A stretch of 64,000 bases of DNA, taken from positions 2,108,001-2,172,000 of the forward strand of contig OY740808.1 of NCBI GenBank assembly GCA_963514005.1, read 5' to 3'. The translations under genes were made by a program, and so were the position numbers. The stretch comes from Raja brachyura (Eukaryota). How positions within the stretch are numbered: the first letter of the stretch is position 1; each line of letters starts with the position of its first letter. A model generated the notes under the pieces. It was not told the origin of the DNA. It saw only the letters and a program-made list of their open reading frames with translations, and did not search any database. Positions 8,745 through 49,020 of the stretch are shown piece by piece.

Positions 8745-8872
8745 GTAGGAAAGAACTGCAGATACTGGTTTCAATCAAAGGTAGACACAAAATGCTGGCG
8801 TAACTCAGCAGGACAAGCAGCATCTCTGGAGAGAAGGAATGGGTGAAGTTTTGCGTCAAGACCCTTCTTCAG
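8745..8872 (-). mobile_element. Solo pLTR-derived element
   Basis: gaactgcagatactgg...gtagacacaaaatgctgg...aactcagc...gcagcatctctggagagaaggaatgggtga...acccttcttcag. Confidence 0.8.
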
Positions 8873-22080: not shown

Positions 22081-22219
22081 TTTGTAATGTTATAAAACTT
22101 TATTTAGTTATTATTTCAACTTTATTGTTTCATCTTATTGCCTATCATGCCGTTACATTGTGCATACGTGGGCTTATCTCTATACTCATTGTTGTGTAAC
22201 CCGACTACTGTTTACAAGT

Positions 22220-22425
22220 TGGTTAAGAAGGAACTGCAGATGCTGGAAAATCGAAGGTAGACCAAAGTGCTGGAGAAACTCAGCGGGTGAGGCAGCATCT
22301 ATGGAGCAAAGGAAATGGGCACCCTTTCGACTCCAGTCTGAAGAAGGGTCTAGACCCGAAACGTTGCCTATTTCCATCGCTCCATAGATGCTGCCTCACC
22401 CGCTGAGTTTCTCCAGCATTTTTGT
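22220..22425. mobile_element. Fold-back (palindromic) pLTR-derived element with 15-bp TSD and intact plus-strand hammerhead-like core
   Basis: TSD ctactgtttacaagt at 22205-22219 and 22426-22440. The two arms are complementary. Core ctgaaga-a-gggt-ctag-accc-gaaa-cgttgcc at 22338-22368. Confidence 0.88.
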
Positions 22426-22572
22426 CTACTGTTTACAAGTGTTGTGCTTGCAGTTCACATCCAGCTTTCAAGACCTAAAACTATCCTTTGCAATTGATCT
22501 TGTTGCATGCGGTTGAGCGAAGGTGGGAATGAGACTGTGGTACAGGATATTCTGTTATTTAGATGTGACATG

Positions 22573-23247
22573 GGTGGCGCCCGTAATGGCTGCCTCGCTA
22601 ACAATCTATCTCGTCCCTTCTGTTTTTATTATTTTAAGTATATCTTAAATGTATGTTTCAATGTTTCTTGGTATGATTTGTGTGTGGGGGGATCGGGGGA
22701 AACTTTTTCCAGTCACTCACCTTGACAGAGATCGGATTTTTCTCCATCTCCCCTGCGGCCTAACACCGTGGACTTGGCGGCCTTTCCCGGAGACTGGCCT
22801 GGCGTTTCTTTAACATCGGGAGCTGCAATCCTTTGGCGGGGATTGTGGAGAGCTCCAACCAGGGGGCCTGCTGACTTTAACACCGTGAAGCCCACGGTCT
22901 CCAGTAAGAAGAGGCTGACTCGGGAGCTCCATGCCGCGAAGTGTTCCATTCCGTCCCGACGCCGGAGTTTCCATCATCCCGATGAGAGGGCTTCAGACAT
23001 CGGACCGTTGGCAGCAGCAAACCGGAGAGTTCCAAAGCCCCGACCACGGTTAAACAAAGGAGGAAGATGATTGAACTTTATTACCTTCCATCACAGTGAG
23101 GAATGTAAATTCCGTGGTGATGGATGTTTATGTTAAATTTTATTTTATGTGGCTGTGTGTCTTGTTGCTTTTTACTTAGTATGGCTGTATGGTAACTCAA
23201 ATTTCACTGTACCTTAATTGGTACATGTGACAATTAAATTGAATCAT
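22573..23247 (+). mobile_element. CpG-rich non-coding retroposon with a Rex1/Babar-like 3' tail
   Basis: Abrupt GC-rich block with no RT motifs. It ends in ttcactgtaccttaattggtacatgtgacaattaaattgaat (stem-loop tail), also seen inverted near 62310-62345. Confidence 0.55.
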
Positions 23248-24950
23248 AAGTCTTGGAAGTAGAAAATTTTAGACTAGCAGTTAATAAACTTAACAAAAGC
23301 ATAACGTGCAACTTTTCAGTTTTGGAATGTATAACTAACTACAATATTAAGGGATCATCCTTTGAACCTTTCAGCATACTGGAATGAGACTGCAATGTTG
23401 TAATTGTACCCCGTGCTGGCAGCTGCTACTGTAACTGGTTTAGTTGAGAGGTTGGTTACTTGTATTACTCTGCTGGATCAAAGTAGAAAACATTATCAAT
23501 GGTGCCTGATAACAGTGCTAAGCAACATTTTGATGTACAGCACTTGAATATTCAAAATTATGTAAATATTTATCAGCCCGAAGATTTTTTAAGAGCTGTG
23601 TAGTTTGTAGAACAATGAAGAGTTGAAGAGAAGCTTCGTTGATTTATAGCTTAAAGACTATTCGACTCGAGACTTAATACATAACTATTAACTATTTGCT
23701 AGAAATCTTCCAGCCGGCATAGAGATACTGATTTTTTTAAATTGAGGTATTGTATGTGTTTTTTCTGCAAACCATTATCGTTTATCTATTCAATGTTGTT
23801 GTATCTATTTGATAATGAATATTCAGATTAACAGTTGTAGTAATTTTTTAAAAAAAGCTTTGATGTCCAAAGTGCTCTTTCAGGGAATCGGGTTTTACAA
23901 CACCCATTAAAATAACTTGATAAAGAGACACATAAAAGTCATACTTTACGCTTGGATTAGAGGACAGGAGCTGGTTATGTCCTTTGCCATTTTTACATAG
24001 CAGTTAATCCTTTCCTCTACCACTTCGCCTCAGCATTAAGCAAATAATGTGCAGTTGCTTATGTTAGCTTGGTTGCTTGAGAATCCAGCAACCACAGATG
24101 GTTTTCATTGAAAATCAATTTTGAGTACAAAAGGCTTACTGAGCTCGACAAGTCAGTTTTAGGGCTGGTGGGAAGTCTTGGCATGTGAAACTTGAAGGAA
24201 GTTCAATCGCCTTGCGCCAAGGGGTGACTAGATCAAAGTGATGGGGTTAATTGATGAAATGGCACTCTCAAAGTAAGCCAGGTCTGAGGGGATCAAATAA
24301 ATTTGCTGGAACGTTGCTGGCTGCTGCATCAGTTCCACCCAGGCATGCCATATCCAGTCGATAGGTTGTTCTTCCATTTTCAAAAGATTTGCAAAAGTAG
24401 TTTCTATATTATCCGAGGTCTGTCAGTTGCAAATTCAGTTTCCTGTCAAAGTTGATGATGTGAATGTTCGCTGAGTGAATACAAATTGTATGTCCCGCAG
24501 TGCAAGAAGATTGCGGCTATATTGTAGGTTGCTTGTGTCTGATGGCCTGTGGGGTGCTTTCCACTCAACAGTTTGTCTGTGCTGTTTGAAGTTGCATATT
24601 TGTCAAAAAGCTGGAGCTTCCATCGAGCCAGATTCTGTCCTTTCCCTAACCATATTTTGTTTATTTGCATGTGGTGTAAAATATTTTTTGTTTCAATCCT
24701 CCATGAACTCTTGGCTTTTGCCACAGCTGTTTCTCCACCAAGAATTAGATTGGCAGGTGGTTCATTTTCCATTTACAGCAGGCAAATGAATAATTCTATC
24801 ACATATATACTTTTAAAATATATATGTTCTATTTGTGATTTTGTGCCCTTTGATGGCAAAATACTTCCCTCTACTGGTGATTTTTAAGAAATGCATGGAT
24901 ATAAATGTTAAACTTTAACTTATCTTAACATATATTTTATTTTTCCACAG

Positions 24951-24999
24951 GCATCAGATGTAGGCTCGGAGAAACTCTTTTCACCTGCAGCAATTAAAG
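24951..24999 (+). CDS. FBRSL1: Internal coding exon (49 nt, phase 0 to phase 1) of an AUTS2/fibrosin-family gene, most similar to fibrosin-like 1
   Basis: Acceptor tattttatttttccacag|, donor AAG|gtatgc. Translates ASDVGSEKLFSPAAIK. From memory, human FBRSL1 has ASVGSEKLFAP and AUTS2 has ASDASSEKLFNT in an exon of similar size and phase. The paralog call is less certain than the family call. Confidence 0.8.
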
Positions 25000-25866
25000 G
25001 TATGCTTATATTTCTATTCACAGCACAGTTTCAAATCTTAAGACGAGCTCAAAATTCATTCAATTAATTGAAATGTCAAGTATCAACATTTTGTTTAGTT
25101 TGTTTTGTTTTTGTTTATATCATTGCATTTACCAAAAATGTGCTTAACATCAGTAGTGGAAATAGTAAATTCTCAAAGTTGATCAGATAAACCTGCTTGC
25201 TGATTAATTTCTCAGAAGAAACATAAATGGGTAATCAAAATTTATAAAGACACAGTTTATCTTACTGGAACTTCAAGATCAGAATCTCAATTGCTGATTG
25301 TGGCTCATCATATAATCTGTCTTATTTTAGCATTTAGTGTTGTTGCAGTATGTTGACCACTATTACCATCTGTTTTTGAAACCTGCTCAGCTGGCTCTAA
25401 TTTTCACATGAACTTTTGTTTCCAAATGTTGGAGTATTTACAATGATGTTCCACCCAGAAATTTAAGAATCTTTCTTATAGCGGTTTTAATATTTTTATA
25501 CGTTGCAAGAAAGAAAGCCTCAATCATTGAAATGCTCAGACCTTGGAATAAGTTCAATCTGAAAATGTATGCAGCCACTGATATCAGAAGCTTCCCATTG
25601 TATTGTCGGATAAACGCTTGTACTGTTTGAATCCAACAAAAATACTGTCAACGATATGTTTTAAATGCAGGAATTGCGTTCTTCGTTACATTTTTAATGT
25701 GCTGCCAGGAATTCAAACAAAGCTTTTAATTAAATTGGTACTTATCTGCAATTAAGAATCTAGAGGAGGTAGATACTTTTATGTAGCAATGTTTTAATAG
25801 TGGTAATAAATGTACCTTTTATCGTCCTTGCCTTAATGTCTGTGGCCCTCATAATTCCTTCCCTAA

Positions 25867-26066
25867 AGGTCCTGTCCTACTTACGCAATTTTTTTTGGCG
25901 CCTGCTGACACCCGTCATAGTTGCAGCAGGTCGCCGAAAATTTTCAACATGTTGAAAATCCAGTGGCAACCAGAGTAAGATATGACTCTTTGGGCGACTA
26001 CTCACGACCATGCAGGCTTCACCCCCGCGACATGTCGCGTAAAATCGCGTAAGTGGGACAGGCCCT
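25867..26066. mobile_element. PIF/Harbinger-like MITE (short version, opposite orientation to 4990-5395)
   Basis: TAA|aggtcctgtcctacttacgc ... gcgtaagtgggacaggccct|TAA. Same 20-bp palindrome at 25940-25959. Confidence 0.8.
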
Positions 26067-28900
26067 TAAACCTATCCTTTTAAAACTATTTCAGTCCTAA
26101 ACTTTTTGACCAAGTATGTGGTGACCTTCCAAGTATGTCAGCGTGTCAGTTTTGGTTAGATTCTATTTTAGTCGACATAGAATACTCAATGGCATCAAGC
26201 ACTATTATTGGTAATTTTTTTTTAAACTTGAGTTGTAATTTCTGATGATTTTATTTTCTTGGTCTGCCTTTATGTTCTTTTCTCTTATAATGTTCCCATG
26301 CGCAAAATACGCAGTTATATTCTCAAACAATATTAATAAAGTTTTAATGGTGAACTTTGTGGGTTGTCTCTTTTGAGTAAAATTGCCCGGCTGCAACCAT
26401 TGCTTTACAAAATGAAGGGGTTACAAAATGCCCGTGGGTCTTTGGTTTATTTTTCGTCCCCTAGACGTTTAATTCTAATGTAGCAAATTTCAACAGTTGC
26501 ACATACAAATAGTCAATGTAGAACATAACTGATTTACTCAATCTTTAGTATATGTTACACAGACCAAATGCCCTGCAGGAGCATGAAACACATTAATAAG
26601 AAATGATTCTATGGAAAGCCCATTTATTTGAAGTGGGGCCATTTCTGAAGTGATGAGTGAGGCAGTTTACTTTACAGCTGGGAACAATTAAGGTGTAAGT
26701 TTCGGCAAAGTGCTTCCATTTCACAAATATCTTTTGTCGGCAGCATTGTTCTGATATCTTGCATCCAATGGCTTTTTCGTTTCCCATCTCCATTTCCCAT
26801 TTCCTTTTATTTTCCGTCAACCTCTGCACTTGCCCGCCTAAACATTATTCTTCTTGAAATCCTTTTGGTGATCCTTTTAAGGACAGGAGACAGAAATAAA
26901 TCTGTTTGTGCAGGTATGTTAAGAAGAATAGAGTAAGACAAGGAACAAACGGAGCAAAGACCTATTGGTCCAGGAGGCCTGTTTTAATGCTGCACCTTTT
27001 AATTTGTACACCGTTTTAGTGCTTTTTGCTCAATTTCAAAGAAATATAAGAACGTGATAGTGGTTAACAAATATGGCAATAACTTTGTTTTAATTTGGCT
27101 CTCTTTGCTTGGGAACGTATTTTACATGGAATGTCGTGGCTCGTATAGTAAGTAACTGAATGATGGATGGATCCATAATTCAGTGCATGAGTATTCTGGC
27201 CATATCATTAGAATGCTGCTTCATCCCCGATTACACTCTGGAGTAAGCCTATAGTTAAACCTTCTAGAAATGAGTATTTGGAGTAGAAATAACCAGTAAC
27301 ATTTGTATTTATACCATGTCTTTTGTGGGCTCTGAGAAACATTTCAAAAACACTTGCAATTAATTTGCCTTGGAAATGAGGAATTTCCATTGTGCAGACA
27401 TATTTGGCAAACAATTTGCATGCAACAAGATCACAGAAGTGGACCTGATTACAAAACACAGCATATTTGTAATTTTGAATAGGTACACGGACAGCTACCT
27501 ACCTGCCTTGGAATCTATTTCTGTATTTTTTAAAACTTGATAATTGCATCATTCCTTCCAGAATTTGGGTGTTTCAGCTAAGTTTTCAAACTTTCTAAAG
27601 TAGCCCAAGTATGATTTCTAAAGCGTCACACACGCTATGCTTATTTTTAGGAATTAATTAAATGCGATTCTGTCTCTCGGCTAAATACGTTTGTACCCAA
27701 AATTAATTTTTCATAATCTTTCAGAAGAATGCTGTCTTCCTTGTTATGTTCAAATAAGCTTCTTTTGAACGATGAGTTTGAGATCTGCTTTGTTGACTAT
27801 GCAAGTAAATGTAAGTTTTTGTAGCTTTATCTTGTGCTTGCACGTCAATAAATCTTAGTTATTATTTCTCTCCCTCTTTTATAATGTGTATAATTTTTAC
27901 AATAAATTGGAGAATGATCCAAGAGCAACTGTACTTCAGGAATTTATTGCATTTTGAGCAAACAACTCAAATTCATTTATTCCTTGTTGTTAAGACCTGT
28001 ATTTAGTGCCTATCCTACTTGGCTTTCGGGCAGTAGTAGAGAGCACCACTTTGAATCTTTGCAGTTTGCTTGGTGAAGGTCACACGTGTACCGTTCAATA
28101 GAGGATTCCAGGATTTTGATCTTGTGCATGATGGAACGCCTATATATTTCCAAATTGTAATGCTCAGATTTAGAAAAGAACTTGAAGGTGATGAAATATT
28201 CATGCACCTTCCTGGGCGTTAAGGGTTTTGTAGTTGCTGTCAAAGAAACCAGCAATTTGAATTAGTTTATCTTTTAATTGGTTGATGCTGCAACTAGAGT
28301 TGAAGAGTAAAACTTTAGTGCAGCGAATGAGGTGCCAGTCAAATAGATTGCTTTGTCCTGATAATGTTAAGCTGTTTGAGCATTGTTGGGTGTCATTATC
28401 CAGACAAGTAGAGATTGTACTTGGTCATCAGATTTTAAGATCTGGTCAATTATAGAGTGGTACAGGTCGGAATCAGGCTCTTCAGTCCACCACTTCATAC
28501 TCACTTTTTGCTCATCTACACCTTCTGTTTGATTATTTTTTCAAAATAAAATTCAATGGTAAATTATACTATTAGTTTAATTATTTTTGAAGGGTCAGTG
28601 AGCTCTGGTGGGTTTTACTCTTCCTGTGCTGTTAACAGAATGTCCTGCTTTATCATGTTGCAGGCAGTAATGTAGACCAGCCAAGGATGTTTTCTTTTGG
28701 TCCCATATGTAGCTCTATTTTCTTGCTTTGGGACACGTGACTCGCGTAGCTTGAAAGGAGAACATTTTTGCTTCGCCACAATTACAGTAGTTTAGTGTAA
28801 AGATCGGCAGTAAGTCAGTTAAACGGGTAACTATTAATGAAAACAGTTTACTTTATAGCAGGTAATAGCAGTTTACCTCATAGCAGTTTACCTCATAGGA

Positions 28901-29033
28901 GGTCTAAAGAAGAGTCTCGACCAAAAAACGTTGCCTATTCCTTCGCTCCATAGATGCTGCCTCACCTGCTGAGTTTCTCCAGCATTTTTATCTACCTTTG
29001 ATATTTCAAGCATCTGCAGTTCTTTCTTAAACA
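28901..29033 (+). mobile_element. Solo pLTR-derived element, core mutated
   Basis: gtctaaagaagagtctcgaccaaaaaacgttgcc...gcatctgcagttctttcttaaac, with acctcat on both flanks. Confidence 0.8.
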
Positions 29034-30716
29034 CCTCATCGCAGCAGATAAGTTTATTGTTCTTCGATCAACTTCAATCTTTTTCAGTTTGTTTATAGTC
29101 TAATTGCAGATAGGGTATTGAACATAATATCCTCCTCAAAACTCCTACAATTAGACTTTTAACACGTGCGGAAGCAAACTATATTGATTCAACAAATACA
29201 TTTTTTTCAAAATGCTAACATGAATTAGTGCTGTTAAAATAGTTAAAACCTAACCGTAACCTAACTTGAGCCTGCAAATAGTTTTTGTGCACAATGCTTC
29301 AAGGTCGTGATACACAAGTATTTAGTGTGTTTTCTAAACATATATTAAAATGGAATGTTTACTGCACCAACTGGAGTAGATTCGTGAAGCTCAGCAGATC
29401 ATAATGCTTCAACACAAATGGCATGTGAAGTTATTCTTAATTGTTTCCATGGACCTACCAGCCCCAGCTTGTTTTGCTCATACCTTGGAAGATTCTGTAC
29501 TATAAACTTCTGCGTATCCTCCATTTTGATGGGACTTTTGAGCGTCTTAAAAACATTATTTAAAAATACAAACAGTTTTGGCTTACTAAAGATTTAATTC
29601 AAAAGTCAAGGTAGCTTCAGTAGATTAGATAACCTGTCAATCAAGACGGGAATAAACTATATACTCCAAAACAATGCAATTTAGAAGTAATCGTAACAAA
29701 ATCTAAAACTTGGCGGAATCAATGTCTAATTTCTGTTGACTTGGTTGTAATATTCCAAAGAAATGCAAAATATCTCAGCAAGGTGAAGCATTAGCTTTAG
29801 ATCCATAGGCAGTTAGATTGGGAGATTCATGAGTGTGTGGGGATGTGGGTGGAGAAAGGTGGTTGCTGCCGACTTAGATGACAGTGGTCCTTGTGGGTCT
29901 CATTTGTAGACGTGTTAGATTGAATTAGCTGAGCTAAGCGCCATTACTAGATCCCATTTGTATTGTACTGAAGAACCACTTCTTGATCTTGTATATCTGG
30001 AATAATTGCTTTAAAATATTCCCAAGCCTCTCTCAGAAGAATGTCAAAAGAAATTAAGTGTTCCAGAGGGAGATGAGTTGATAGATTTGTAAGTGAGCAT
30101 TCATTTTCTTCCACCAACCTCCTGGCAATGCATGTACTCTGTCGATGGACTCATTTAGGTGTCTTTTGCGTAGTTGCCTTGGGACCCGGGCTTGTTAAAG
30201 CTGACAACCGGAAAAGCAAATGAAACAGGATAAATGTAACAGAAGCGTAAAGGCTAAGAAAGTATGAGTCGGGTAATCAACAGTGAAAAGTTAAATCTGT
30301 TGATGGGTAATACAACAACATTAGATCAGTGGAGGGAATATTCATGAAAAGATTTATGATGTAGAGCTAGTTCATGCTCTTAAAGAGCAAGTGCTCCTCT
30401 TCCCAGATCATCTCCCAGATGGTAAGATCAAACCAGAAGGGAAAAAGCATACCAAGATTAACAAAAGGCAAAAAACAGAATATAAGTTAAAATACATTTA
30501 CAATATGTATCAGCATAAGAACAATGGCATTTTATTTTCATCTAAAAAATAGTAAATGGGCCAAATATGAGAATCGGTGCAAGAGGAAGGAGACATTGAA
30601 ACTGCTCTGTCATTCATTGAAATAGCACCAAGGCTGATCTTCACATTGGTGTTATTTTTCAGCACTGCCTTCACACCCTATTACTTCTTATACACTCTGA
30701 TGTATAATCTCTATTA

Positions 30717-31917
30717 AGCAGTGGATGTTGTCTATATGGACTTCAGTAAGGCCTTTGACAAGGTTCCTCATGGAAGGTTGGTAAAGAAGGTTCAACTGTT
30801 GGGTATAAATGCAGGAATAGCAAGATGGATTCAACAGTGGCTGAATGGGAGAAGCCAGAGAGTAATGGTGGATGGCTGTTTGTCGGGTTGGAGGCAGGTG
30901 ACTAGTGGGGTGCCTCAGGGATCTGTGTTGGGTCCTTTGTTGTTTGTCATGTACATCAATGATCTGGATGAAGGGGTGGTAAATTGGATTAGTAAGTATG
31001 CAGATGATACCAAGATAGGGGGTGTTGTGGATAATGAAGAGGATTTCCAAAGTCTACAGAGTGATTTAGGCCAGTTGGAAAAATGGGCTGAAAGATGGCA
31101 GATGGAGTTTAATGCTGATAAATGTGAGGTGCTACACCTTGGCAGGACAAATCAAAATAGGACGTACATGGTAAACGGTAGGGAATTGAAGAATACAGTT
31201 GAACAGAGGGATCTGGGAATAACCGTGCATAGTTCCTTGAAGGTGGAATCTCATATAGATAGGGTGGTAAAGAAAGCTTTTGGTATGCTAGCCTTTATAA
31301 ATCAGAGCATTGAGTATAGAAGCTGGGATGTAATGTTAAAATTGTACAAGGCGTTGGTGAGACCAAATCTGGAGTATGGTGTACAATTTTGGTCGCCCAA
31401 TTATAGGAAGGATGTCAACAAAATAGAGAGGGTACAGAGGAGATCTACTAGAATGTTGCCTGGGTTTCAACAGCTAAGTTACAGAGATAGGTTAAATAAG
31501 TTAGGTCTTTATTCTCTGGAGCGCAGAAGGTTAAGGGGGGACTTGATAGAGGTCTTTAAAATGATGAGAGGGATTGACAGAGTTAATGTGGACAAGCTTT
31601 TCCCTTTGAGAATAGGGAAGATTCAAACACGAGGACATGACTTTAGAATTAAGGGACAGAGGTTTAGGGGTAACATGAGGGGGAACTTCTTTACTCAGAG
31701 AGTGGTAGCGGTGTGGAATGAGCTTCCAGTGGAAGTGGTGGCGGCAGGTTCGTTGGTATCATTTAAAAATAAATTGGATAGGCATATGGATGAGAAGGGT
31801 ATGGAGGGTTATGGTATGAGTGCAGGCAGGTGGGACTAAGGGAAAAAAGTTGTTCGGCACGGACTTGAAGGGCCGAGATGGCCTGTTTCCGTGCTGTAAT
31901 TGTTATATGTTATATGG
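30717..31917 (+). mobile_element. Young 5'-truncated CR1 (HER1-like) LINE with 3' UTR and (TTATATG) tail
   Basis: Uninterrupted RT frame. 3' end gggccgagatggcctgtttccgtgctgtaattgttatatgttatatgg. Confidence 0.95.
30721..31839 (+). CDS. CR1 ORF2 reverse transcriptase C-terminal fragment (372 aa; transposon-derived, no true start)
   Basis: DVVYMDFSKAFDKVPH, VTSGVPQGSVLGPLLF, KYADDTK, RPNLEYGVQFWSP, TRGH motifs. Confidence 0.9.
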   Translation: MDVVYMDFSKAFDKVPHGRLVKKVQLLGINAGIARWIQQWLNGRSQRVMVDGCLSGWRQVTSGVPQGSVLGPLLFVMYINDLDEGVVNWISKYADDTKIGGVVDNEEDFQSLQSDLGQLEKWAERWQMEFNADKCEVLHLGRTNQNRTYMVNGRELKNTVEQRDLGITVHSSLKVESHIDRVVKKAFGMLAFINQSIEYRSWDVMLKLYKALVRPNLEYGVQFWSPNYRKDVNKIERVQRRSTRMLPGFQQLSYRDRLNKLGLYSLERRRLRGDLIEVFKMMRGIDRVNVDKLFPLRIGKIQTRGHDFRIKGQRFRGNMRGNFFTQRVVAVWNELPVEVVAAGSLVSFKNKLDRHMDEKGMEGYGMSAGRWD

Positions 31918-31984
31918 TTAAGAAGGGACGTAACTATGGAGCATTCACAGCCCCCCAGTATAGAGAATTCCAAAGATGTGAATA

Positions 31985-32570
31985 GTGAAAGGCTTGAATA
32001 GAATGGATGTGGAGAGGATGTTTCTACTAGAGGGAGAGTCTAGAACTAGAGGTCATAGCCTCAGAATTAAAGGACGTTCTTTTAGGAAGATGAGAAGGAA
32101 TTTCTTTGCTAGACAAAAGTGCTGGAGAAACTCAGCGGGTGCAGCAGCATCTATGGAGCAACGGAAATAGGCAACATTTTGGGCCGAAACCCTTCGGCCT
32201 GAAGGATTTCGGCCCGAAACGTTGCCTATTTCCTTCGCTCCATGGATGCTGCTGCACCTGCTGAGTTTCTCCAGCACTTTTGTCTACCATCGATTTTCCA
32301 GCATCTGCAGTTCCTTCTTAAACAAAAGAATTTCTTCAGTGAGAGGGAGGTGAATGTGTGGAATTTTTTGCCACAGAAGGCTGTGGAGGTTACGTCAATG
32401 GATATTTTTAAAGCAGAGATAGATACATTCTTAATTAGTACGGGTGTCAGGGGTTACGGGGAGAACGCAGGAGAATGGGGTTAGGAGGGAGAGATGGATC
32501 AGCCATGATTGAATGGCGGAGTAGACTTGATGGGCCAAGTGGACTAATTCTGCTCCTATATTTGACCGTA
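31985..32570 (+). mobile_element. CR1 3' fragment interrupted by a fold-back pLTR element (32107-32327)
   Basis: CR1 sequence ESRTRGHSLRIKGR resumes after the insert. TSD gaatttctt at 32098-32106 and 32328-32336. Confidence 0.85.
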
Positions 32571-32964
32571 TGACCTTAAACAAACAAACCTACCTCTTGT
32601 TCTCCATCTGTACTCTCTGGTCTGAGATTCATTCAAAGGGCTTAGCATGTTAAGCCCTGCATGAAGCTGCTGGCTTTGCAACCTATGATGTAATAATGAC
32701 CTTTTTAGAAGAGTTGGTATATTGGCAAAGTAACTTCACTGTTTGGAATAATATCGTGGAATCTTTCGTGCTCGCCTGAGAGGGTTGTTCTGCGATTTGA
32801 TATTTGAAAAAAGTCATCTCTAGCAATCCAGGACGGAGTTATCAACTCTGCTGGAATCTAGAGACAGCAAGAAAGCAAAACTTTCTCTCCCAGCATGCGT
32901 ACAACCAAATGAGGAATTTGAAAGATTGTTTTGATGAGTCGAGGCCAGCAAGGATTTAAGAAGA

Positions 32965-33175
32965 AACAAGGAACAGCAGATGCTGGTTTACAAAATAAGA
33001 CACAAGTGCAGTTGTAGCTCAGCGGGTAAGGCAGTATCCCTGGAGAACATGGATAGATAGAGGTTTCATGTAGAGAAATACAGTCTGAAGAAGGGTTCTG
33101 ACTCAATGTCATCTATCCATATTCTGCAGGGATGCCGCCTGACCCGCTGAGGTGCTCGAGCACTTTGTGTCTGTC
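32965..33175. mobile_element. Older fold-back pLTR-derived element
   Basis: Complementary arms (gacacaagtgc...ctcagcgggt...ggagaacatggataga / tctatccatattct...acccgctgag...gcactttgtgtc) around agtctgaagaagggt. Confidence 0.8.
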
Positions 33176-34525
33176 TTGGATTTATGAAGGATTGGTTGTA
33201 TCTGGTGAACAAGTTTTAATTTTGGGGGGAGGTCACCAAAATATTGGGCAGGAATGTTCTTAGTCTATCACTTTTATTTCAATGGTTCAGCTGGAATTGA
33301 TACACTCGAGATTTATAGCTGAAGTTGAAACTTAGAATTGAAGGTGCATTAATTGATCTGGCTATGAGACCTGCTGAGCAACAGGAAACCAGAGAGTCAA
33401 GATAATGGGTAGTGTTCAGTCAGGATATGATTGGTGGTAAATGTTCCTTATAGTACAACCACATTCTTCCGGTGACCGGAATATGTAGTACTATATTGAT
33501 ATAACTAATCCGAGACAATACTAAAATAAGAAGAAATTTCATGTACTTTGGAATTCTGCATTGGCTATCATTAAGTAAAATCAAGGCTGAATTCTAGATT
33601 TTTGGGTTGCAGAAGGTATTGGAATCAGACAGGAGAATTAAGTTGAAGGCAAGAGTAAAATACCATCCAGAAGAGGTGTTATTGTATTCTCAAGACACAG
33701 ATAAATTCACCCACTGTTTCATCTACCTCTGCCTTAAAGTTTCCTCAAAAGGATGGTGGAGGCTGTCATTGAAAAGAGTTACTCCAGCTTTTTGTGTCTA
33801 TCTTGATTGAAAAGAGAGTGCCAAAGGCTCCATCCTCTGGCCAAAATCCTTTCATTTTAAGTGACCTCAGGGTGCCAATACCGAAAGGAGACAAAGTCAT
33901 GAGAGAAAAACTTATATCTGAATCGATTCTTGAAAGAAAGGGTGTCTGGTTTCTGCTCGGAATTTGACTGTTCAACGTTTCGAAGTTCATGTCTTCCTAT
34001 TCTGACATCATTCATTGATGTTCTTAAGGGGCTTGGTATCGCACTATTGCACTGCTGAAATTCCACGTTGGTATCGCTTACTGCAAATCACAGATTTACT
34101 GGGGAAAAAATCGATCCTTGAATTGGAAAAATGTATGAATCAGGAGCAAGAGTAGGTCAGTCAGCCCCTTGAGCCTATTCTTCCATTAAGTTAGATTATA
34201 GCTGATTAAACCTTAACTCTACAAACTAGCCTACATATCCAATAACTTTCACTCTTGTGTATCAAAAATCGTATCTTTTTGTGCCTTAAAACAACTAAGT
34301 CTGCTTCCACCAATGTTGTGGAAGAGACTCGGTCTTCAATCTTAAATGGGTCACCCATCATATCAACGGTGACCCAGAGTTCTAGTTTGTCCCGCCTTTA
34401 TACACACTCTCAGGAGACACCTCAGGAGCTTGCCAGTTTCATTGTCTCTTCTAACTGTTAAATTCCAGCAGATACAAATCAATCCCTCCAACCCTCCTTG
34501 TAAGGCAAACCATCTATTCCAGGTA

Positions 34526-35478
34526 GCTCCCCCAAGTCGCAACAGAGACAGTCCCCCTAGTCCTTACCTTCCACCCCATCATCCGTCGCATACAACACAT
34601 AATCCTCAGAAATTTTCGCCACCTCCTACGGGATCCCACCATTAGCCACATCTTCCCATATCCACCCATTTCCGCCTTCCACTGAAACCGTTCCCTCCGC
34701 AACTCCCTGGTTAACTCATCCCTTCCCACGCAAACAACCCGCTTCCCAGGTACCTTCCCCTGCAACTGCAGAAGATGCAATACCTGTCGCTATGCCTCCT
34801 CCCTCCCTCGACTCTGTCCAGGGACTCCGACAGTCCTTTCAGGTTAGGCAGAGGTTCACTTGCACCTCCTCCAACCTCACCTACTGTATCCGTTGTTCAA
34901 GATGTGGACTCGTATACATCGGTGAGACCAAACGCAGACTGGCCAGTCGTCTCACGGAACACCTTCGCTCAGCCCACGTGAACCACCCTGATCTCCTGGT
35001 TGCTGGACACTTTAATTCTCCTTCCCATTCCTACACAGACCTTTCTGTCTTCGGTCTCCTCTTTTGTCAGAGTGAGGCTAAACACAAATTGGAGGAACAG
35101 CATCTCGTATTTCGCTTGGGCAGCTTACAGCCCAGTGGTATGAATATTGATTTCTCTCACTTCAGGTAGCCACAGCATTCCCTCTCTATCCCTTCCCCCA
35201 CCCAAGTCGTACTAGCTTCTCATTTTCACCCTACAAACAGCTTACAATGGCCTGTTTCCTTAAATCATCTTTATTTTTTTGCATATCTTTGATTCATTGT
35301 TCTTTATCTCTCCACATCTTTGTCTACATCTCTGGTTTTCCTTATCCCTAACCAGTCTCGACCCGAAACGTCACCCATTTCTTCTCTCCAGAGATGCTGC
35401 CTATCCCGCTGAGTTACTCTAGCTTTTTACATCGTTATCTTCGGTTTAAACCAGCATCTGCAGTTCCTTCTTACACAC
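34526..35478 (+). mobile_element. 5'-truncated Penelope-like (Neptune-type) retroelement with 10-bp TSD, inserted in an old minus-strand CR1
   Basis: TSD attccaggta at 34516-34525 and 35479-35488. Cys motif CNCRRCNTC, then the GIY-YIG ORF, a 3' UTR and the pLTR at 35353-35478. Confidence 0.9.
34792..35169 (+). CDS. GIY-YIG endonuclease domain of the Penelope-like element (fragment)
   Basis: FTCTSSNLTYCIRCSRCGLVYIGETKRRLASRLTEH...VAGHFN...LEEQHLVFRLGSLQPSGMN. Confidence 0.88.
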   Translation: MPPPSLDSVQGLRQSFQVRQRFTCTSSNLTYCIRCSRCGLVYIGETKRRLASRLTEHLRSAHVNHPDLLVAGHFNSPSHSYTDLSVFGLLFCQSEAKHKLEEQHLVFRLGSLQPSGMNIDFSHFR

Positions 35479-36784
35479 ATTCCAGGTACAAATCTATTAA
35501 AATCTATCTGTTGCTTCCAACGAATTTCCATCCATCCTTTGGGAAGGAAACCAATAATGTACATAATTCCGAATGTTCCCTCACTTTCCCAATAACTCTT
35601 TGTACCTGCACACCATCCTTTGGCAAATCGTACACTTGAACATCCAAACCATAATCTCTCCTCATTTAGATTTCATGCTTTTGTATTTTTCCTGCCAAAT
35701 GGACAGTTCTACATTTTCCTGTATTATATTGCATTTGTCTGTTCTTTAATCACTCTCTTAACCCAGCTATATCCCTTTGTAGCCTACATCTGTCCTCTTT
35801 AAAATGTATCTTCAGTGCCTCCATCCAAATTATTGACATAAAACTGAGGCTCCAACATCAACCATTGCTCAGCCCACTTTCCCAGCAAGAACCTGCTGTA
35901 ATTTTTGATAATCATCGCCATTTACAATACCCTCTTTGGCTCATCCGCAACTTCAAAGAGCTCCAATATATTGGTCATCATGATCTTCCTTTCTCAAAAT
36001 GTATTGACCCTGTTTATCTTTCTAGGTGCCTTGCCATGATATTTTTCAAATGAAACTTATTAAGCTGATTATCCTGTAATTTCCTGTGTTCTATCACCTT
36101 CCATATTTGAATATAGACATTGCATTCACAATTTTCCAATGTAATAATCCTTCCCTGATGCTAGAGAATTTTGGAAAATTAAACCCAATGCATACCTGTC
36201 TTATTAGCGACCTTTATGATCTTAGGATGAAGCAATACTGACTTATACCTGAGTTTTATTTGGTCATTTGAGAATTAAATAAGAGTGGATAATAAAGCAA
36301 ATAATATAACTTGGGCTACATCATTCATTAGTGTTCTGGAGTCATTGCACAAATCGTGCACGAGGTACTGAGGTTATAAAGCATATGTGTGGACATTTTA
36401 ATTTTCCCTTTGTCTCGCAATAATTCTGTATGCATTTAAAAGCAAATGAAATGAATGGCTTGGAAGTGAACACACAAATGTATTGTGAAACCAAAGGCAT
36501 CATTGAAGCCAGGGTGCAACAACATTTTATTAAATTTCACTGTGTGCTGCACTCTTTAAAATTCCCATTTTAGTGTTTGAATTACATCTGTTGAGAGTTG
36601 TGCACCACCTATTTAAATTATTCATGAAGTGATACAGCACAGAATCGAGCACTTCATTCTACAGTATCCATACCGATCATCAAGTACCTATCAATACTAA
36701 TTCCATTTACCGGCACTTAGTCCATGTAACTTGGGAATTCAAGTGATCATCTAGGTACATAAATATTGTCTGAGTACATGCCTA

Positions 36785-38307: not shown

Positions 38308-38893
38308 CAGGGGTGGGCAACATGCGGTCTTCTAGGCTATTAAGTGCGGCCTTTTGAATGAATCCAAATTTTGCAGAACAAATCTTTATTTTTATTTCAG
38401 AAGGAACTGCAGATGCTGCAAAATCGAAGGTAGACAAAAATGCTGGAGAAACTCAGCGGGTGAGGCAGCATCTATGGATCGAAGGAAATAGGCAACGTTT
38501 CGGGTCGAGATCCTTCTTCTGGTCTGAAGAAGGGTCTCGACCCGAAACGCCGCCTATTTCCTTCGCTCCATAGATGCTGCCTAACCCGCCGAGTTTCTCC
38601 AACATTTTTGTCTACCTTTCATTTTTATTAATATGTTTTTGTTCATCTTTTATTAATTTTTATTTTAATCTTAAAATGAACTTGCATAAAATACCAAAGA
38701 GTACAAGAAGATTCAACAAAATAATTCTCCCCGACTGACAACCACAATTAAAACATTAGTAAGTCATGAGGGCTATTTTAACAAAACAATGTACATTTTG
38801 AAGTATATCTAATTGAAGTTTCTTGGATGCGGTCTTATTAGATTTCAGCTAACATAATGCGGAATTCCAACATGAAAAGGTTCCCCTCCCCTG
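38308..38893. mobile_element. hAT (Charlie-like) non-autonomous DNA transposon containing a nested fold-back pLTR element (38400-38617)
   Basis: TIRs caggggtgggcaac ... gttcccctcccctg. 8-bp TSD gcatagcc/gcatggcc (38300-38307, 38894-38901; one mismatch). Confidence 0.8.
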
Positions 38894-41796: not shown

Positions 41797-42058
41797 TAGT
41801 TTAGTTTAGAGATGCAACAAATGGAAACAAGTCCTTCGGCCCACCGAGTCTGTGCCAGCCAGCGACTAGTTCTATCCTGCACACTAGAGACAATTTACAG
41901 AAGCCAATGAGCCTATAAACCTGCATGCCTTTGGAATGTGGGCGAAACCGGAGCAAACCCTTACAAACTCCATACTGACAGCACCCATAGTCGGGATCGA
42001 AACCGGAGTCTCTGGCACTGTGAACAGCTACTCTACTGTTGTGCCACTGTGCCACCCT
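41797..42058 (-). mobile_element. HE1-type V-SINE
   Basis: The minus strand begins gggtggcacagtggcac, has the B-box-like ggtttcgatccc, and ends ...ctctaaactaaacta. Confidence 0.8.
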
Positions 42059-42219
42059 AAACTACATCTCTAGGTTCTTCCTTTTAAAAAAAAAAAAATC
42101 TCTCAAGCACTTATGTTCTCTCCCTTAAAATATGTGTGTGTATGTGTCGTCAGCCATCCCTTCTCTCCAGAGATGCTGCTTCACCCATTGAGTTACTCCA
42201 GAATTTTGTGTGTATTTAA

Positions 42220-42405
42220 NNNNNNNNNNNNNNNNNNNNNNNNNNNNNNNNNNNNNNNNNNNNNNNNNNNNNNNNNNNNNNNNNNNNNNNNNNNNNNNNN
42301 NNNNNNNNNNNNNNNNNNNNNNNNNNNNNNNNNNNNNNNNNNNNNNNNNNNNNNNNNNNNNNNNNNNNNNNNNNNNNNNNNNNNNNNNNNNNNNNNNNNN
42401 NNNNN
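42220..42405. other. Assembly gap (186 N)
   Basis: Run of N, preceded by a pLTR fragment at 42148-42218. Confidence 1.
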
Positions 42406-45400
42406 TGATGCCACTTTAATCCAATCTGCCTGTCCATGCCCTGCCTGTTTGTGCCTCATTAAATGCCTCCGGGAGGCATATAGTCCAGCCCATTTGTATT
42501 GCTACTGTCATATTTTCACACAACGCAAGGTTATATTTTCTTCCCTGAGTCTTGTTTCCAAATTCTATTGCATCTTTCAGTTTGGATTTTCTCTGCCATC
42601 CATCTCTACATCCTATTCACTCGCCTGAATGTACCTGCAGTCCTTTGCAATCTTTTTCACAATTTGGTATGGTTATAGTTCAATATTCCTCTTTCAGAAA
42701 CTGACCAGATCGATTGTAAATAAGATCAGCCCCGCATAGTATCCCTTGGAACGTGTCTTTAACGTTTCAGTGGCAAAACAATCTTGTGACAACTTTGTTT
42801 TACTTTCTACCTTAAACTATTTCTCAATCCGGGCAGCAACATCTCCTATAATATATGCAGGTTTGCCACATAATTTGGAAAACATACTGTCATAGTATCA
42901 CCACAAAATCTGTTAAATGTCTTACTTTTTCCTCATTTGTAAACCTAAAAATACCGGATTTACTGTTTCCCATCTGTTTTAATTATGCCTACTTAACATA
43001 TTGTATCATTGGTCAGGTAACTGGTTTTATATAAAAACATGCCTCTGGTATGTTGGAACATTTTGTTCAAATAAGAATGTCAGTTTCCTGACACTGTGCA
43101 GCAGATCAAAGCAGAGAAAACATGGAAAATATCAAAACTGGAGGTTTTTTATTGGAATGAAGTAAACATTCATAAGATCAGTAGCATAAGGGCACAAATA
43201 GAGGTAAACAGATTAAATCTAATCACTATATCATACATAGATAATGTTGTAAAATGAACCCAAGGCTGGGAAATGAAAATACAGATACCTTGATATTCAG
43301 AAAATAAATGAATTGTAAAAGAGACCGTGAGTCTAAGCTCTGGTAAAGAATTATTTCAGGAAAGTAGTCAGAGAAGATCTTAGCAGAAGAGATCATCAGT
43401 AAGTAGAATAATTTTTGTCTGAAGATGAGGAATGCCAATAGGCAAATACTGTCAGCAATGGTAGCTGGGAAGTAATATCACTTTGCAACAAAAGTAATGC
43501 AATAATCGTCATTGACTTGTGGATAAGTAAGTATTTGAAAAGCATTGAGCTTAGTTTCCGGGAGTATGATGAGAAACGAGTCACACTTTTCCAGTTCTGA
43601 ATTAGTGTAATGACGTGGGGGAGCACGAGGGTGGTATGGAATACAACTCCAGCCTTTCCTTAGTCAGTCTTTCTAACATCCTTGTAAACCTTTATTGTGC
43701 CATTTCCAGTTTAATGGCATATTTCTTACTGGACACAGGAATCCAAATATACTTACCAACATTTTGTACAGCAATAACATATTATTTGACTCCTGTACTC
43801 AATACCCTAGGCCTCTCTGTTCAACACACTTCCCAAGTGCTCTACCATTTACTATGAAAGTATTACCTTGGTTTATCTTACCCATACGCGGCACCTTACA
43901 TTTATATGAACTGAACTCTCATCTGCCACAACACCTTAGGATAGACTTGATTTGGTTCCAGGTATGTATCTACCTTGTTTAAACCTCTAACACAACCTCA
44001 TCTGTAATATGGACACGACAAAATATCACCATAAACTTCCCCTGATCCCCTTGCATCAAGATGTTCTCCACAGTAAATACATATGAAAAATATTTGTTTC
44101 GGACCTCTCCTGGATACTGCAGCTCCCCAAATAGACGATCTATAAGGAATCCCATACTCTCCCCTCCAATATACTTGTAGATTCTCCTTTCCCTCATCTG
44201 TCTTTTTGTCCTCTTAATGTCCCTCTTCAGTGTATTCTCACCCTCCACTCCCCAAGGGTTTCACTTGATCCCAGCTGCATACACTCGACGTAAATAGTTC
44301 ATCCTCCAATTAAATATTGGCCTGAGTTAGCTGCATCTTACCCACTCTGGGATTGCTTGAAACCTAATTTTTCCGCTCCAAGAGTTATATTTTAATATGT
44401 AAAAAGATTGATCCCACTAAAATAATGAACTTTAAAACGATACTCGTACAGCTTAGGGACTATAATGCTAAGGTAATATCTCGAGTGTGCTTGGTCTCAA
44501 TTTGCAAAAACATTTTGCATAAGTTATTTGTTTATCCATTTTGCAGGGATCAAGTTTTGATTGAATCTAAGAAAGGGTGAAAAATAATGTGGCTATAAAC
44601 AGAAGCACAAACATCATAAATACATTGCTTTTTTCCAAAATCGAAAGTGGCAGAACTAACATTAATTGTGCTGTAAAACTAGATGCTTCCCTTGCTGAAA
44701 ATACTAGGCATTTTCATGCCTTTGTGTTAACACAGTGCAGTTTAGCTCTCAGCTCATTTAATTTCTTCTCATGCATTTTACGTAGGTTCAAAACATGCTT
44801 TCTGTTATACACTCAAGCTGCTGCTTGTGTTCACTTTATAGCTTTCCAGATGTCTTGATATTTATGAAGCATCATGCCAGCTTTCCTGATGGTGATTCTC
44901 ATGGCTGCAATCTGTTGTTCCTGCAGCAGACTGCTGGGAGATTACTGTAAAGTCTGCTGTATGTGTTCAAATTACTGAATTGTCTTAACAAGATTAGGCC
45001 AAGGATGCAGGGGAGCATCTTAGAGGTTTTCAACATCATGTCTGTGTAAATATTTATCGCAAGGGTATGCTTCCTTACAGTTTTTTCTAAACAAATGTTT
45101 GACATTTGATCAGACATAGAACAGATGGTTGTTGATTTAGTCCCATTTTTGAAGTCAGGAAAGCGAGTCTTATTAAGTAGAAGTTTATATTCCTCAGCAC
45201 TCAGCGTGAATCCCCTGAGAGCTGCACTTAAGGAAGAAACTAAATCAAAATACACAACGTGCTGAAAGACTAAATTTTACTCTAGAATAAAGACAACACT
45301 ACAGCAAAGTGCACATTATACAATAATACTGAACATTGAATTGAAAATTAATCTCAGCAATTCGTTACACATTTGCCTGGATGTTGGTAAATAATTTTAA

Positions 45401-46479
45401 TTATCTCGAGGAGGCGTGAAGTTATGAACAGCCTTATCTCGATATTTTTCTTAAAAAAAGCAGTGCTTTTTATTCCACTTTTGTCATTTTGGTTTTCATA
45501 ATTTATTACATTGTAAACGCCAGACCTAAAGCGTTAAAACTAAATCTACCCGTGTAACTGGTGACTTAATGCGGAAATTGCCTGAGGGAGTTGCGTGCAA
45601 ATTAACATTTTTGAATGGATCAGAATTAAATTTGTGGCTCAGAATGATGCAAGGCGAAAATATCTGATGCATGGGAGATTGATACTAGTTCCATTGGGAC
45701 AGGCTCCACTTAAATAGAACTGGTATCAGACAGAACATTAGGCTATAGGCAAGGTTTTAATCTAATAAAGGTTGTTCAAGAGGTATAGGCTGAGTTCAGG
45801 TGAGGGAAAACGTATAGGTTTTACAAGAGCAAGCAATCTGAATCGCAGACTTCTAAAAGTAGAGCAAAGATAACACCATTATTTCCGAAAGATGGAGAGA
45901 AATTGCAGGAGACTATAGACCTTTTTATTCTTGACAACATGCTGAAACCCATCATTATGTGCATGGCAGTGGGCACTTTGAAAATAATATGATTAAATAC
46001 AGTCCATTTGATATATATATTATTGATGAGGATAATGGACTTTTTTTGAGGATGTAACTGGCAAGTTAATTCACGGGATTTATAAGTGGCATCACAAACA
46101 AACTGGCTGCCAAAGATTCATGGGGTTAGGGATTGGTTAAAAAGCATAAAGCAAAGAAGGAATAAACATGTGTTTTTACTTTAGCATACTGTTACATTTG
46201 GATGCCACATAAATTGGTCCTGGAGCCTAAAATATTAACTATTTATGACAGATAAAAATATAAATGTGTATGATGTTTCATTATTTGCAGTGAACCAGAG
46301 CTTGGTACAATAGACAATAAACAATAGGTGCAGGAGTAGGCCATTCGGCCCTTCGAGCTAGCACCGCCATTCAATGTGATGGCTGATCATCCACAATCAT
46401 GTGAAACTGAGAGGGCACATTTGAACACATACAGTAGACTTTACAGTAATCTCCCAGCAGTCAGCAGTCGTTTGTTGTT

Positions 46480-46710
46480 GGAAGGAACTGCAGATGCTGG
46501 TTTAAACCGAAGATAGGCACAATGCTAGAGTAATTCAGCAGGACAGGCAGCATCTCTGGATAGAAGGAATGGGTGACGTTTCAGGTTGAGACCCTTCCTC
46601 ACCCTTCTCTCAGTCCGAAGAAGGGTCTCGACCAGAAACGTCACCCATTCCTTCTATCCAGAGATGCTGCCTGTCTAACTGAGTTACTCCAACATTTTGT
46701 GTATATCTTT
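46480..46710. mobile_element. Fold-back pLTR-derived element
   Basis: gaaggaactgcagatgctgg...gggtgacgtttcaggttgagaccc | gaagaagggtctcgaccagaaacgtcacccattcc... Confidence 0.85.
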
Positions 46711-47619
46711 GATAGGTTAAGATCTGGACATGGCAGGGCTCAAAATTAGCGGTTGCCCGGGTCCAATGACCACCCAATGTGCCGCCGGGCAACCTAAACG
46801 CCAACTCATTTTGCCCGGCTTGGCAAGCAAATACTGGTTTATACCGATAGACACAAAAAACTGGAGTAACTCCGCGGGTCAGGCAGCATCTCTGGAGAAT
46901 AGGAGCGTGACGTTTCGTGTCGACGGCGGTGGCTGTATTCCTGTAGTATCTTTGATTGCGGGGCAAAGATACCAGGTGCAGGGTGAGGATGGGTCGGAGC
47001 GAATGATGGGACCCGAACAGCGGCAGCAGCGGCTCTACCGCCTCCTCCCCCCGCACCCCGCCTGGTGGAAGGAGCCCTCCTTCCCTCCCTCCTCCCGGCC
47101 TCGGCGTGCGAGAGGGGTTGTTTTGAAAGCGCAGTTGGTGGCTTTGCAGCTGTAGCTTTTGATTTGCAGGCAGCGGCCGCTATCGCCCTGATAACGGCCG
47201 CTGCCTGCAAACCCGTTAACGGCGCTTTCAATACAACCCCTCTCGCACGCCAAGGGGGGGAGAGAGAGAGAGGGAGGGAGGCGGAGGTCTCCTTCCGCCA
47301 ACTGAAGCAGCTGCACCAAAGATCTTATAGTTATAGGATCTTTGAGCTGCACCGCTCGGCCCCGCACCTTGCTGGCGGTGGCGACGAGTTCCCAACCGCC
47401 TCCCCCTTTGGTGGCGGCACTTTGACGTTGGACAGGGACGGCCAAGGCTGCGGTGCGATGTTGTCCGAGGAGCGCTGACCTCCTTCTCTCCCCACCTCCT
47501 CTGCCCCTTCTCCTCCCCCCCCTTTCTCTCTTGCTCTCGCTCTCGCTCTCTTGCTCTCTCTCTCGCTCTCTCTCTCCCCCCCCCCCCCTCCACCACTCTT
47601 AGCCTGGGACTCCTCCTCT

Positions 47620-48006
47620 CCATCCCGCACTGATCCCCATTCCCTCCTCTATTCAGTCCTCACTGACATCCCCTGTGCTCCCCTCCCCATCTACCCCCCC
47701 CAATCTATTCATCACCCTACCAACCTCGCATTGATTCTCCTGCCACCCCCCCATCCATCCTACACTGGTCCCCCAATTCATCCTGTACTGACCCCCCTTC
47801 CCATCCATCCTGCGCTTCTCCCCCCCAGTCAGACTTCCACTGACCCACCTTCCATTTACACTGCACCAAACCTCCCATCCAACCTGTAGTGATCTCCTCA
47901 ATCATCTTTTACTGATCCCCATTCATCCTGTACTGATCCCCTCATGCATCCTGTACTGATCCCCTCATTCATCCCGTACTGAGCCCCCCATTCATCCTAT
48001 ACTGAT
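47620..48006. repeat. C-rich degenerate 21-23 bp minisatellite, preceded by (CT)n/poly-C low-complexity sequence at 47480-47590
   Basis: Units actgatcccc(tc)attcatcctgt at 47911, 47932, 47955 and 47978, with diverged copies upstream. Confidence 0.8.
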
Positions 48007-48438
48007 TATGGATAAATTATGTGGGAAGCCAGAGTGTTTCTGTGCCAATAGCAATAACGACCCATGCTATGGCCATGTCATGGTAATTTTCGGTCCTTCA
48101 CAAAAAACACGCTTGCATCAATCTGTAGTGTGCATGGTCCAGGATTTATTGGCACATGTTGATCATTTGCTGAATAATCCAACCACATTTTTGTTTGGAA
48201 GTGGAATGAACTAATAGAAATTGCATTCATTGCAATATGTAAAAAGAGTTGAGATATTGTATTATAATGTTGTTGCATATCATTGTGGTCATTTAAGATG
48301 GATAGGAAGGGGGGTCAGTACAGGATGAATTGGGGGACCAGTGTAGAATGGATGGGGGGGTGGCAGGAGAATATCATGTCTTCATTGGTGAATATGTTTA
48401 GTTTGTGAGTTATTTGAAGCAGAAATAATATGTGAATG

Positions 48439-48656
48439 TAGACAAAAGTGCTGGAGAAACTCAGCGGATGCGGCAGCATCTATGGAGCGAAGGAAATAGG
48501 CAACGTTTCGGGCCAAAACCCTTCTTCAGATTGATGGGTTTTGGCCTGAAACGTTGCCTATTTCCTTCGCTCTCTAGATGCTGCTGCACCCGCCGAGTTT
48601 CTCCAGCACTTTTGTCTACCTTCGAATTTTCCAGTATCTGCAGTTCCTTCTTGAAC
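48439..48656. mobile_element. Fold-back pLTR-derived element with 14-bp TSD
   Basis: TSD ataatatgtgaatg at 48425-48438 and 48657-48670. Arms are near-perfectly complementary. Confidence 0.9.
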
Positions 48657-49020
48657 ATAATATGTGAATGCTTCATTGAGCATAATTCTGACTGGTAACT
48701 ACGCACTTCGTTCGAGCACATTATCGCACGCGTCATGCAAACCGTCTTAAATGACCACCTAAACTGTCATTTGGCAACCTAAAAAGATGTCGAGATTGCC
48801 CGGCTGGCTACAGGGGAAAAAAGTTAAGTGAGAGCCCTGCATGGTAATGTAGCAAAATGTATCATTTTATTTTTCTCTTTTTCCAACTCATATTTTTAAT
48901 ATGTTGGTTACACCAGGGGATCTTGGCTCCAAAACGTGTAGTTAACAATTGGGAATTCTGTTTTAATTGGAGGCACTAATTTAAGGATATTGTTTTGGCT
49001 GTTGTGAAATTGCGATGTAA

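Follow-up and report, generated by a model that had tools for sequence, protein, structure and literature searches.

Six palindromes in a 64,000-bp stretch of the Raja brachyura genome (assembly GCA_963514005.1, contig OY740808.1, positions 2,108,001 to 2,172,000 of the forward strand; hereafter, the window) are insertions of the pseudo-long terminal repeat (pLTR) that forms the end module of an endonuclease-bearing (EN+) Penelope-like element (PLE). We moderately favor the reading that both nicked strands of the target prime reverse transcription, one at each of two start sites and probably on one RNA, and that the complementary DNA (cDNA) started at the second site snaps back, or is joined, and so meets the cDNA of the tail. 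The palindromes belong to a dense family, since a self-search of the window revealed approximately 27 arms and solo copies of one module of ~140 nt.

Six palindromes and the element they derive from

The palindromes, named A to F here (at 22220, 32107, 32965, 38400, 46480, and 48439, respectively), are all among the 13 inverted repeats of the window. Their arms are 55-100 nt long with a complementarity of 80-91%, and an antisense arm is always followed by a sense arm, an order that is unavoidable for head-to-head pairs. An initial annotation, made from the sequence of the window, had reported six palindromic copies of this build with a junction that differs between copies; all six were recovered where it had placed them, and all six centers are distinct. 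Palindrome A (22205-22440) has a tailed left arm (22220 to ~22329) and an untailed right arm (22334-22429), the final 4 nt of which are also the initial 4 nt of the duplicated target, i.e., a microhomology. Palindrome B (32098-32336) sits within the 3' part of the open reading frame (ORF) of a long interspersed nuclear element (LINE), and its untailed left arm (32107-32195) and tailed right arm (32201-32327) are separated by a 5-nt center. In the old and decayed palindrome C (32952-33184), the left arm is tailed and the right arm untailed (33081-33177), and this arrangement is also found in D (38388-38629) and E (46476-46713). The tailed (~46476-46601) and untailed (46610-46713) arms of E are separated by a 9-nt filler, which repeats element sequence from close by. 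Palindrome F (48425-48670) has an untailed left and a tailed right arm and is located inside a multi-copy host repeat. Subfamily marks are common to both arms in A, B, D, E, and F and, by eye, also in C.

The origin of the module is revealed by a 5'-truncated PLE on the plus strand (34516-35488), flanked by a 10-bp target-site duplication (TSD; 34516-34525 and 35479-35488). Here and below, the significance of TSDs was assessed by shuffling each copy's own flanks 2000 times (3/2000 in this case). The copy contains the remnant of a GIY-YIG endonuclease in a plus-strand frame (34603-35169), followed by the 3' region and a pLTR with tail (35350-35478). The frame matches the Pfam GIY-YIG family with an E value of 2e-4 and 21.9 bits, just below the curated cut-off of 22.6 bits, and gave GIY-YIG atlas matches of 0.95-0.96. 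It contains a CxxC between the two halves of the GIY-YIG motif; two internal cysteines have been described for PLE endonucleases (PMC8557442). Owing to its 5' truncation, the copy does not include the telomerase-related reverse transcriptase (RT), and the linker before the endonuclease, where the Neptune clade has a CX2-5CxxC finger, is frameshifted and decayed. Since the module ends this GIY-YIG-bearing copy and starts with a minimal hammerhead motif (see below), it is a PLE pLTR. Two degenerate patterns for the element gave no matches in viral contigs or in metagenome contigs. Elsewhere in the window, a solo copy on the minus strand (7544-7720) extends upstream into pyrimidine-rich sequence resembling the 3' region of the longer PLE copy, and an untailed sense arm (42148-42405) runs straight into a 186-base assembly gap.

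Five of the six palindromes are flanked by TSDs. These measure 15 bp in A (22205-22219 and 22426-22440; no flank shuffle reached that length), 14 bp in F (48425-48438 and 48657-48670; 0/2000), and 9 bp in B (32098-32106 and 32328-32336; 13/2000), all three exactly as initially annotated. Two were added, i.e., an AT-rich TSD of 9 bp in D (38388-38396 and 38621-38629; 15/2000) and a weak one of 7 bp in C (32952-32958 and 33178-33184; 71/2000). By comparison, a repeat of at least 9 bp was found between random pairs of positions in 5 of 1500 trials. The distance between the TSDs is 206-224 bp in these five palindromes. TSDs of variable length (7-15 bp), as in EN+ PLEs, also flank a miniature copy (see below) and several solo copies, and the 106 TSD bases are 75% AT, indicating AT-rich targets.

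As already proposed in the initial annotation, each palindrome is a single insertion: the TSDs enclose both arms in five of the six cases, and paralogous empty sites exist for B and F. When the flanks of B were compared with a paralogous LINE frame in the window, the left one matched up to residue 324 and the right one from residue 323, with an overlap only at the TSD. For F, the evidence comes from contigs of sequencing runs that are not from the window's own organism; these were aligned to one 12-kb stretch, with A, B, C, and D outside it. Approximately 300,000 contigs per DNA run aligned there, with most depth on the pLTR family. A contig from run X10 lacks 232 bases, which is the offset between the TSD copies of F, and a second one holds a single target copy. 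The depths of these contigs, 654 and 1084 as compared to ~20 in the unique flanks, show that they stem from host-repeat copies other than this one, and the empty sites are therefore paralogous and not orthologous. In the region of E, the contigs stop at 46318-46343, short of the palindrome.

Tails, turns, and a miniature copy

On the 3' side, copies of the module preferentially stop either at the end of the tail (site 1) or in a zone of ~10 nt around gtctac (site 2). One arm is tailed and the other untailed in all six palindromes (P ≤ 0.016 if the ends were independent, an upper bound that is used since the tail pattern misses a tailed solo copy at 28901). Beyond gtctac, the tail slices of A, B, D, and F are 33-41 nt long, with up to 2 flank letters included. 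An inverted pLTR combined with a tail of 30-40 bp at one end only, as found in all six, has been described for PLE insertions (PMC8557442; PMC3846280), and, in vitro, two RT start sites flank the tail (PMC11167929). Site 2 is a genuine insertion end, because two solo copies end there with TSDs of their own: a 27-bp solo copy at 33779 on the plus strand (33768-33816; 11-bp TSD 33768-33778 and 33806-33816; 1/2000) and an untailed solo pLTR at 62378 on the minus strand (62374-62492; 10-bp TSD 62374-62383 and 62483-62492; 2/2000). Loose contig ends were found at the tail-end positions 46476/46480 in at least 600-810 contigs per DNA run and at 46861, near site 2, in at least 136 contigs of run X20. 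The initial annotation described one arm as truncated near gtagac. That arm is indeed shorter, but its end is the published boundary of the PLE tail and not a random truncation.

Some further tailed copies are of note. The tailed solo copy at 28901 has a TSD of 7 bp if exact or of ~12 bp with a mismatch (29033-29044), and a 15-bp tandem duplication of target sequence (28869-28898) lies immediately to its left. A tail-only sense piece on the plus strand (8678-8703) and a tailed antisense copy on the minus strand (8742-8873) are positioned tail to tail, ~40 bp apart, and tail-to-tail joints were found in 25-33 contigs per DNA run. Such joints could represent two-sided priming that was resolved without a TSD or chance adjacency; they were rejected as proof of two-sided priming, since chance adjacency in such a dense family could produce them.

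At its start, the module contains a minimal type I hammerhead (as defined in PMC4209133), consisting of CUGAAGA, one extra base, helix II, GAAA, a palindromic CG, and UC or UU. Complete cores number five in the window, two of which are located in palindrome arms (2/12 arms): one in the untailed arm of A (22338-22365, plus strand; with an extra A and GAAA-CG-UU) and one in the untailed arm of F (48529-48502, minus strand). Helix II is 83% paired across 15 copies, in which changes are one-sided only, without any compensatory change, and helix I is limited to 2 bp here. Rfam gave no matches at the gathering score and no hammerhead match in the window; in D, microRNA models, which are hairpin-shaped, matched below threshold only. 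No monomer cleavage was observed for minimal hammerhead motifs in PMC4209133. A deletion bounded by a 3-nt repeat (35350-35360) has removed from the GIY-YIG copy both the CUGA core of its pLTR and the first helix II strand.

In the following, positions are counted from the C of CUGA as +1, with the predicted cut site after +28. The ends of the copies do not coincide with this site, and the possibility that the arms end there was discarded, since they pass through it. Most 5' ends of the family lie at -7 to +2, on (A)TCAGT (22334-22337, 33081-33084, 46611-46614, and minus-strand solo copies). This sequence, which we take to resemble an initiator motif, could mark an initiator-like start or a 3' splice site. 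In the Drosophila Penelope element, the end of an intron adjoins the hammerhead (PMC4209133).

The palindromes turn at -7 to +20, but the two arms generally do not reach equally far. The untailed arm reaches -4 in A, as compared to +13 to +20 for the tailed arm, -4 as compared to +12 or later in C, -5 as compared to +2 in E, and -7 as compared to +6 in F. The difference is marginal in D (-2 vs. +1 to +3), and both arms stop at +6 in B; for B and D, some reference alignments crossed the center, giving -9 and -5, and were read as spurious. Hence, the untailed arm reaches clearly further in the 5' direction in four of the six palindromes, whilst the tailed arm does so in none. In A, C, and F, the start of the shorter arm lies at approximately +6 to +20, or as far as +40 in C, which is decayed. 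The turn was previously placed at or just upstream of CUGAAGA, which is correct for the longer arm but not for the shorter arm of A, C, and F, nor for B. The annotation also had the turn at the ribozyme core. It does not coincide with the cleavage site; it lies ~10-35 nt upstream of it, close to the 5' margin of the short unit. On visual inspection, the turning point of D and E is a TCAG-T-CTGA palindrome at this margin, near-symmetric in D, and the center of B reads as two short snap-backs.

A seventh, miniature copy (53407-53493) has a TSD of 14 bp (53407-53420 and 53480-53493; 0/2000) that encloses only 59 bp. These consist of 8 nt of antisense sequence from site 2 (53421-53428), a 24-nt filler (53429-53452), and 27 nt of sense tail (53453-53479), and the two arms do not overlap. 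On both strands of the window, the 8-mer occurs seven times, i.e., five times in copies of the family, once here, and once elsewhere. It is absent from the 27-nt sense piece and was, therefore, not copied from it. At its start, the filler repeats 8 bp of the target end in inverted orientation, with a 5-nt loop between the two, which, judged from the sequence, probably marks a free 3' end that snapped back onto the target. The short form is also present, across the left junction, in contigs of three related organisms, which overlap the tail by 23-30 letters, below the 31-letter rule that was applied; neither a full nor an empty allele of the locus was found in the contigs of these organisms.

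Routes to a head-to-head insertion

In the series of events that we infer, a GIY-YIG endonuclease would make staggered nicks 7-15 bp apart in AT-rich DNA, after which both 3' ends would serve as primers for reverse transcription, most likely of a single RNA. One of them would start at the tail end (site 1), and the other 30-40 nt upstream, in the gtctac zone (site 2). The cDNA from site 2 would then read through the uncut hammerhead to the 5' limit of the RNA, a few nt before CUGA, where its 3' end would snap back, aided by TCAG-T-CTGA and the self-complementarity of helix II, or be end-joined, thereby meeting the cDNA from site 1. After fill-in, the product would consist of TSD, untailed antisense arm, variable junction, tailed sense arm, and TSD. 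A lizard PLE studied in vitro was found to cut and extend both strands and to use uncleaved RNA, and its protein was modeled as a dimer (PMC11167929).

Alternatively, priming may occur once, with the cDNA from the tail end folding back and copying itself to near gtctac, or an antisense template may prime itself. We consider this unlikely, although junction palindromes have been interpreted in this way, with an antisense template, in the literature (PMC3846280). Self-priming would account for the common subfamily of the arms within a palindrome and for the centers of D and E, which turn on a built-in palindrome, and of B, with its two apparent snap-backs. However, a strand that is copied from the tailed cDNA cannot outreach it, and the simple fold-back of the tailed strand originally proposed thus fits poorly with A, C, E, and F, where the untailed arm extends further; it would require later deletions that trimmed four centers on the same side. 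Self-priming also leaves unexplained why the copy stops where TSD-flanked solo copies begin and why the arms of the miniature copy do not overlap. The version with an antisense template is less exposed to these objections. Even less probable is the joining, by host repair and without snap-back, of two full-length cDNAs made from separate RNAs in a dimeric ribonucleoprotein. The dimer model and the extension of both strands in vitro (PMC11167929) are compatible with such joining, as are the fillers and 0-4 nt overlaps at the turns, which resemble end joining, and the 5-10 differences in ~72 columns between partner arms in A, B, D, E, and F (the 28 differences in C are partly due to misalignment). 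Yet, pairs with two tails or none should then be frequent, whilst none was seen among the six palindromes, and no bias as to the longer arm would be expected.

Two remaining explanations are both very improbable. A ready-made palindromic master, RNA or DNA, that is copied as a unit would agree with the similar overall lengths of 206-224 bp but not with the palindromes of the same subfamily, A and D or B and F, which differ in their centers and end points. The other explanation is that the palindromes are miniature inverted-repeat transposable elements (MITEs) of a DNA transposon or independent insertions that landed head to head by chance. It could appeal to the hairpin shape, to E without a TSD, and to the density of the family. 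However, MITEs have symmetric, fixed terminal inverted repeats, whereas here one end has an unpartnered tail of 30-40 nt and the end points vary over ~10 nt, and MITEs have TSDs of fixed length, whereas those found here measure 15, 9, 7, 9, and 14 bp, with none in E. Furthermore, the TSDs enclose both arms, the empty paralogous sites of B and F lack both arms, the module ends a GIY-YIG copy, and no transposase family was found in a Pfam scan of 292 of the 341 open frames. This reading is, thus, largely refuted for A, B, D, and F, and the view of the initial annotation that the palindromes are products of retrotransposition rather than DNA transposons is borne out. A further candidate, i.e., a non-LTR retrozyme, was rejected, since the palindromes are head to head and not head-to-tail tandem units. 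Direct pairs of untailed solo copies, ~130 bp apart on the minus strand, are present at 3408/3501 (3408-3600) and 59530/59667 (59530-59760); each pair combines two sequence types, with unrelated DNA in between.

Several observations weigh against priming from both target ends. The number of copies is small, six full ones and a miniature one, and the sign test on arm length gave P values of 0.06 (4/4) or 0.03 (5/5). In vitro, the start sites were the same on top and bottom strands (PMC11167929). Partner arms are not mutual nearest neighbors, with ranks of 1-5 among 24 and of 9 and 16 for C; hence, arm similarity lends no support to their synthesis from the same RNA molecule. E lacks a TSD, the longest match between its flanks being 4 bp. 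The letters at the junctions fit snap-back and end joining equally, and later deletions could have reshaped the centers, chiefly those of A and C. The empty site of F rests on two contigs of paralogous repeats, with shorter sides of 28 and 23 letters. Finally, the miniature copy may have started as a full palindrome, the center of which was lost in an old deletion, and two of its joints have fewer than 31 letters on one side.

Related systems, surroundings, and implications

The closest published parallels are Pen2a and Pen3a of Adineta vaga (PMC3846280; scheme in PMC8557442), which share a head-to-head inverted pLTR, a tail at one end, junction palindromes, and AT-rich targets, and in which TSDs of 8-10 bp surround the whole unit (PMC3846280). 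In contrast, the inserts described here comprise only two pLTR arms, ~210 bp in total and without an ORF, and their arm-length bias, together with the miniature copy, points to priming from both target ends rather than to the self-priming published for A. vaga. The Poseidon element PAc of Anolis (PMC11167929) likewise has an AT-rich target and a tail delimited by two RT start sites, and both strands are nicked and extended, with read-through of the uncut hammerhead; inverted insertions are not treated in the available part of that paper, and the element studied here has no assignment to Poseidon or Neptune. With the hammerheads of metazoan PLEs and non-LTR retrozymes (PMC4209133; bioRxiv 10.64898/2026.07.22.740005), it shares CUGANGA, the extra base before helix II, the G-C closing pair, and the palindromic CG after GAAA. 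Retrozymes, however, are head-to-tail tandems (bioRxiv 10.64898/2026.07.22.740005), whereas the arms here are head to head and end upstream of the cut site. Pairs of hammerhead motifs 100-700 bp apart on opposite strands have been described in Schistosoma (PMC4209133).

A comparison can also be made with L1. In its twin-priming model, reportedly put forward by Ostertag and Kazazian in 2001, internal priming by the second target strand is said to leave the 5' piece inverted, with microhomology to the TSD. The miniature copy at 53407 shares the non-overlapping layout of that model. Whereas the inverted and direct parts of L1 are free of overlap, a body of ~95 nt is present in both arms of the palindromes, which needs snap-back, strand displacement, or a second RNA.

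Around the palindromes, no host exon was recognized in the Pfam scan, which covered open frames of at least 55 aa and which short exons would escape; the 49 frames left out lie mostly over known repeats. The four matches obtained were two RT fragments, one ALKBH8_N, which is presumably a common match on LINE remnants, and one far below the cut-off. LINE RT fragments are located at 30718-31839, 10549-11031, 9994-10179, and 21475-21648, with one open frame of 373 aa (Pfam RVT_1, E value 2e-22). Two features lie in a GC-rich repeat adjoining E (46733-47480): a partially tailed solo pLTR (46830-46923) and an inverted repeat of 58 nt (47092-47149 and 47205-47262). Nested inverted repeats with arms of 40 and 44 nt and short tandem units give the region 4987-5961 a transposon-like appearance, and minisatellite-like arrays are found at 47917-48359, with inverted blocks, and at 51474-51664.

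If transcribed, the palindromes are predicted to form stable stems. Folded as RNA, F gives one long stem of -165 kcal/mol (z -21), and none of 200 shuffled sequences was as stable. The initial annotation suggested that such stems mask the ribozyme, but with a full core in only 2 of the 12 arms and no monomer cleavage observed for minimal motifs, there is little for masking to act on. Use of the stems by ADAR or Dicer is a guess.

The head-to-head pLTR layout with a one-sided tail is already published (PMC3846280, PMC11167929), whilst the making of tandem and inverted PLE insertions was described as undefined in PMC8557442. No publication stating the model of two-end priming was found in a search that reached few subscription papers, and this model is a testable mechanistic lead. 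For annotators, the palindromes carry a warning, as such hairpins may be filed as MITEs or microRNA-like stems. The very many TSD-bounded copies of ~210 bp constitute a large natural record of integration junctions, in which counts of tail pairing and arm-length bias would discriminate twin priming from self-priming. Perhaps, and this we put forward tentatively, the inverted pLTR and the one-sided tail of PLEs in general result from one process, in which both nicked target strands prime on one RNA at the two start sites and the cDNA from site 2, after snapping back, is transferred onto that of the tail, with the miniature copy as an aborted intermediate. If so, this single process would replace self-priming on an antisense template as the explanation, and a strict one-tail rule together with a longer untailed arm would be expected across all EN+ PLE clades.

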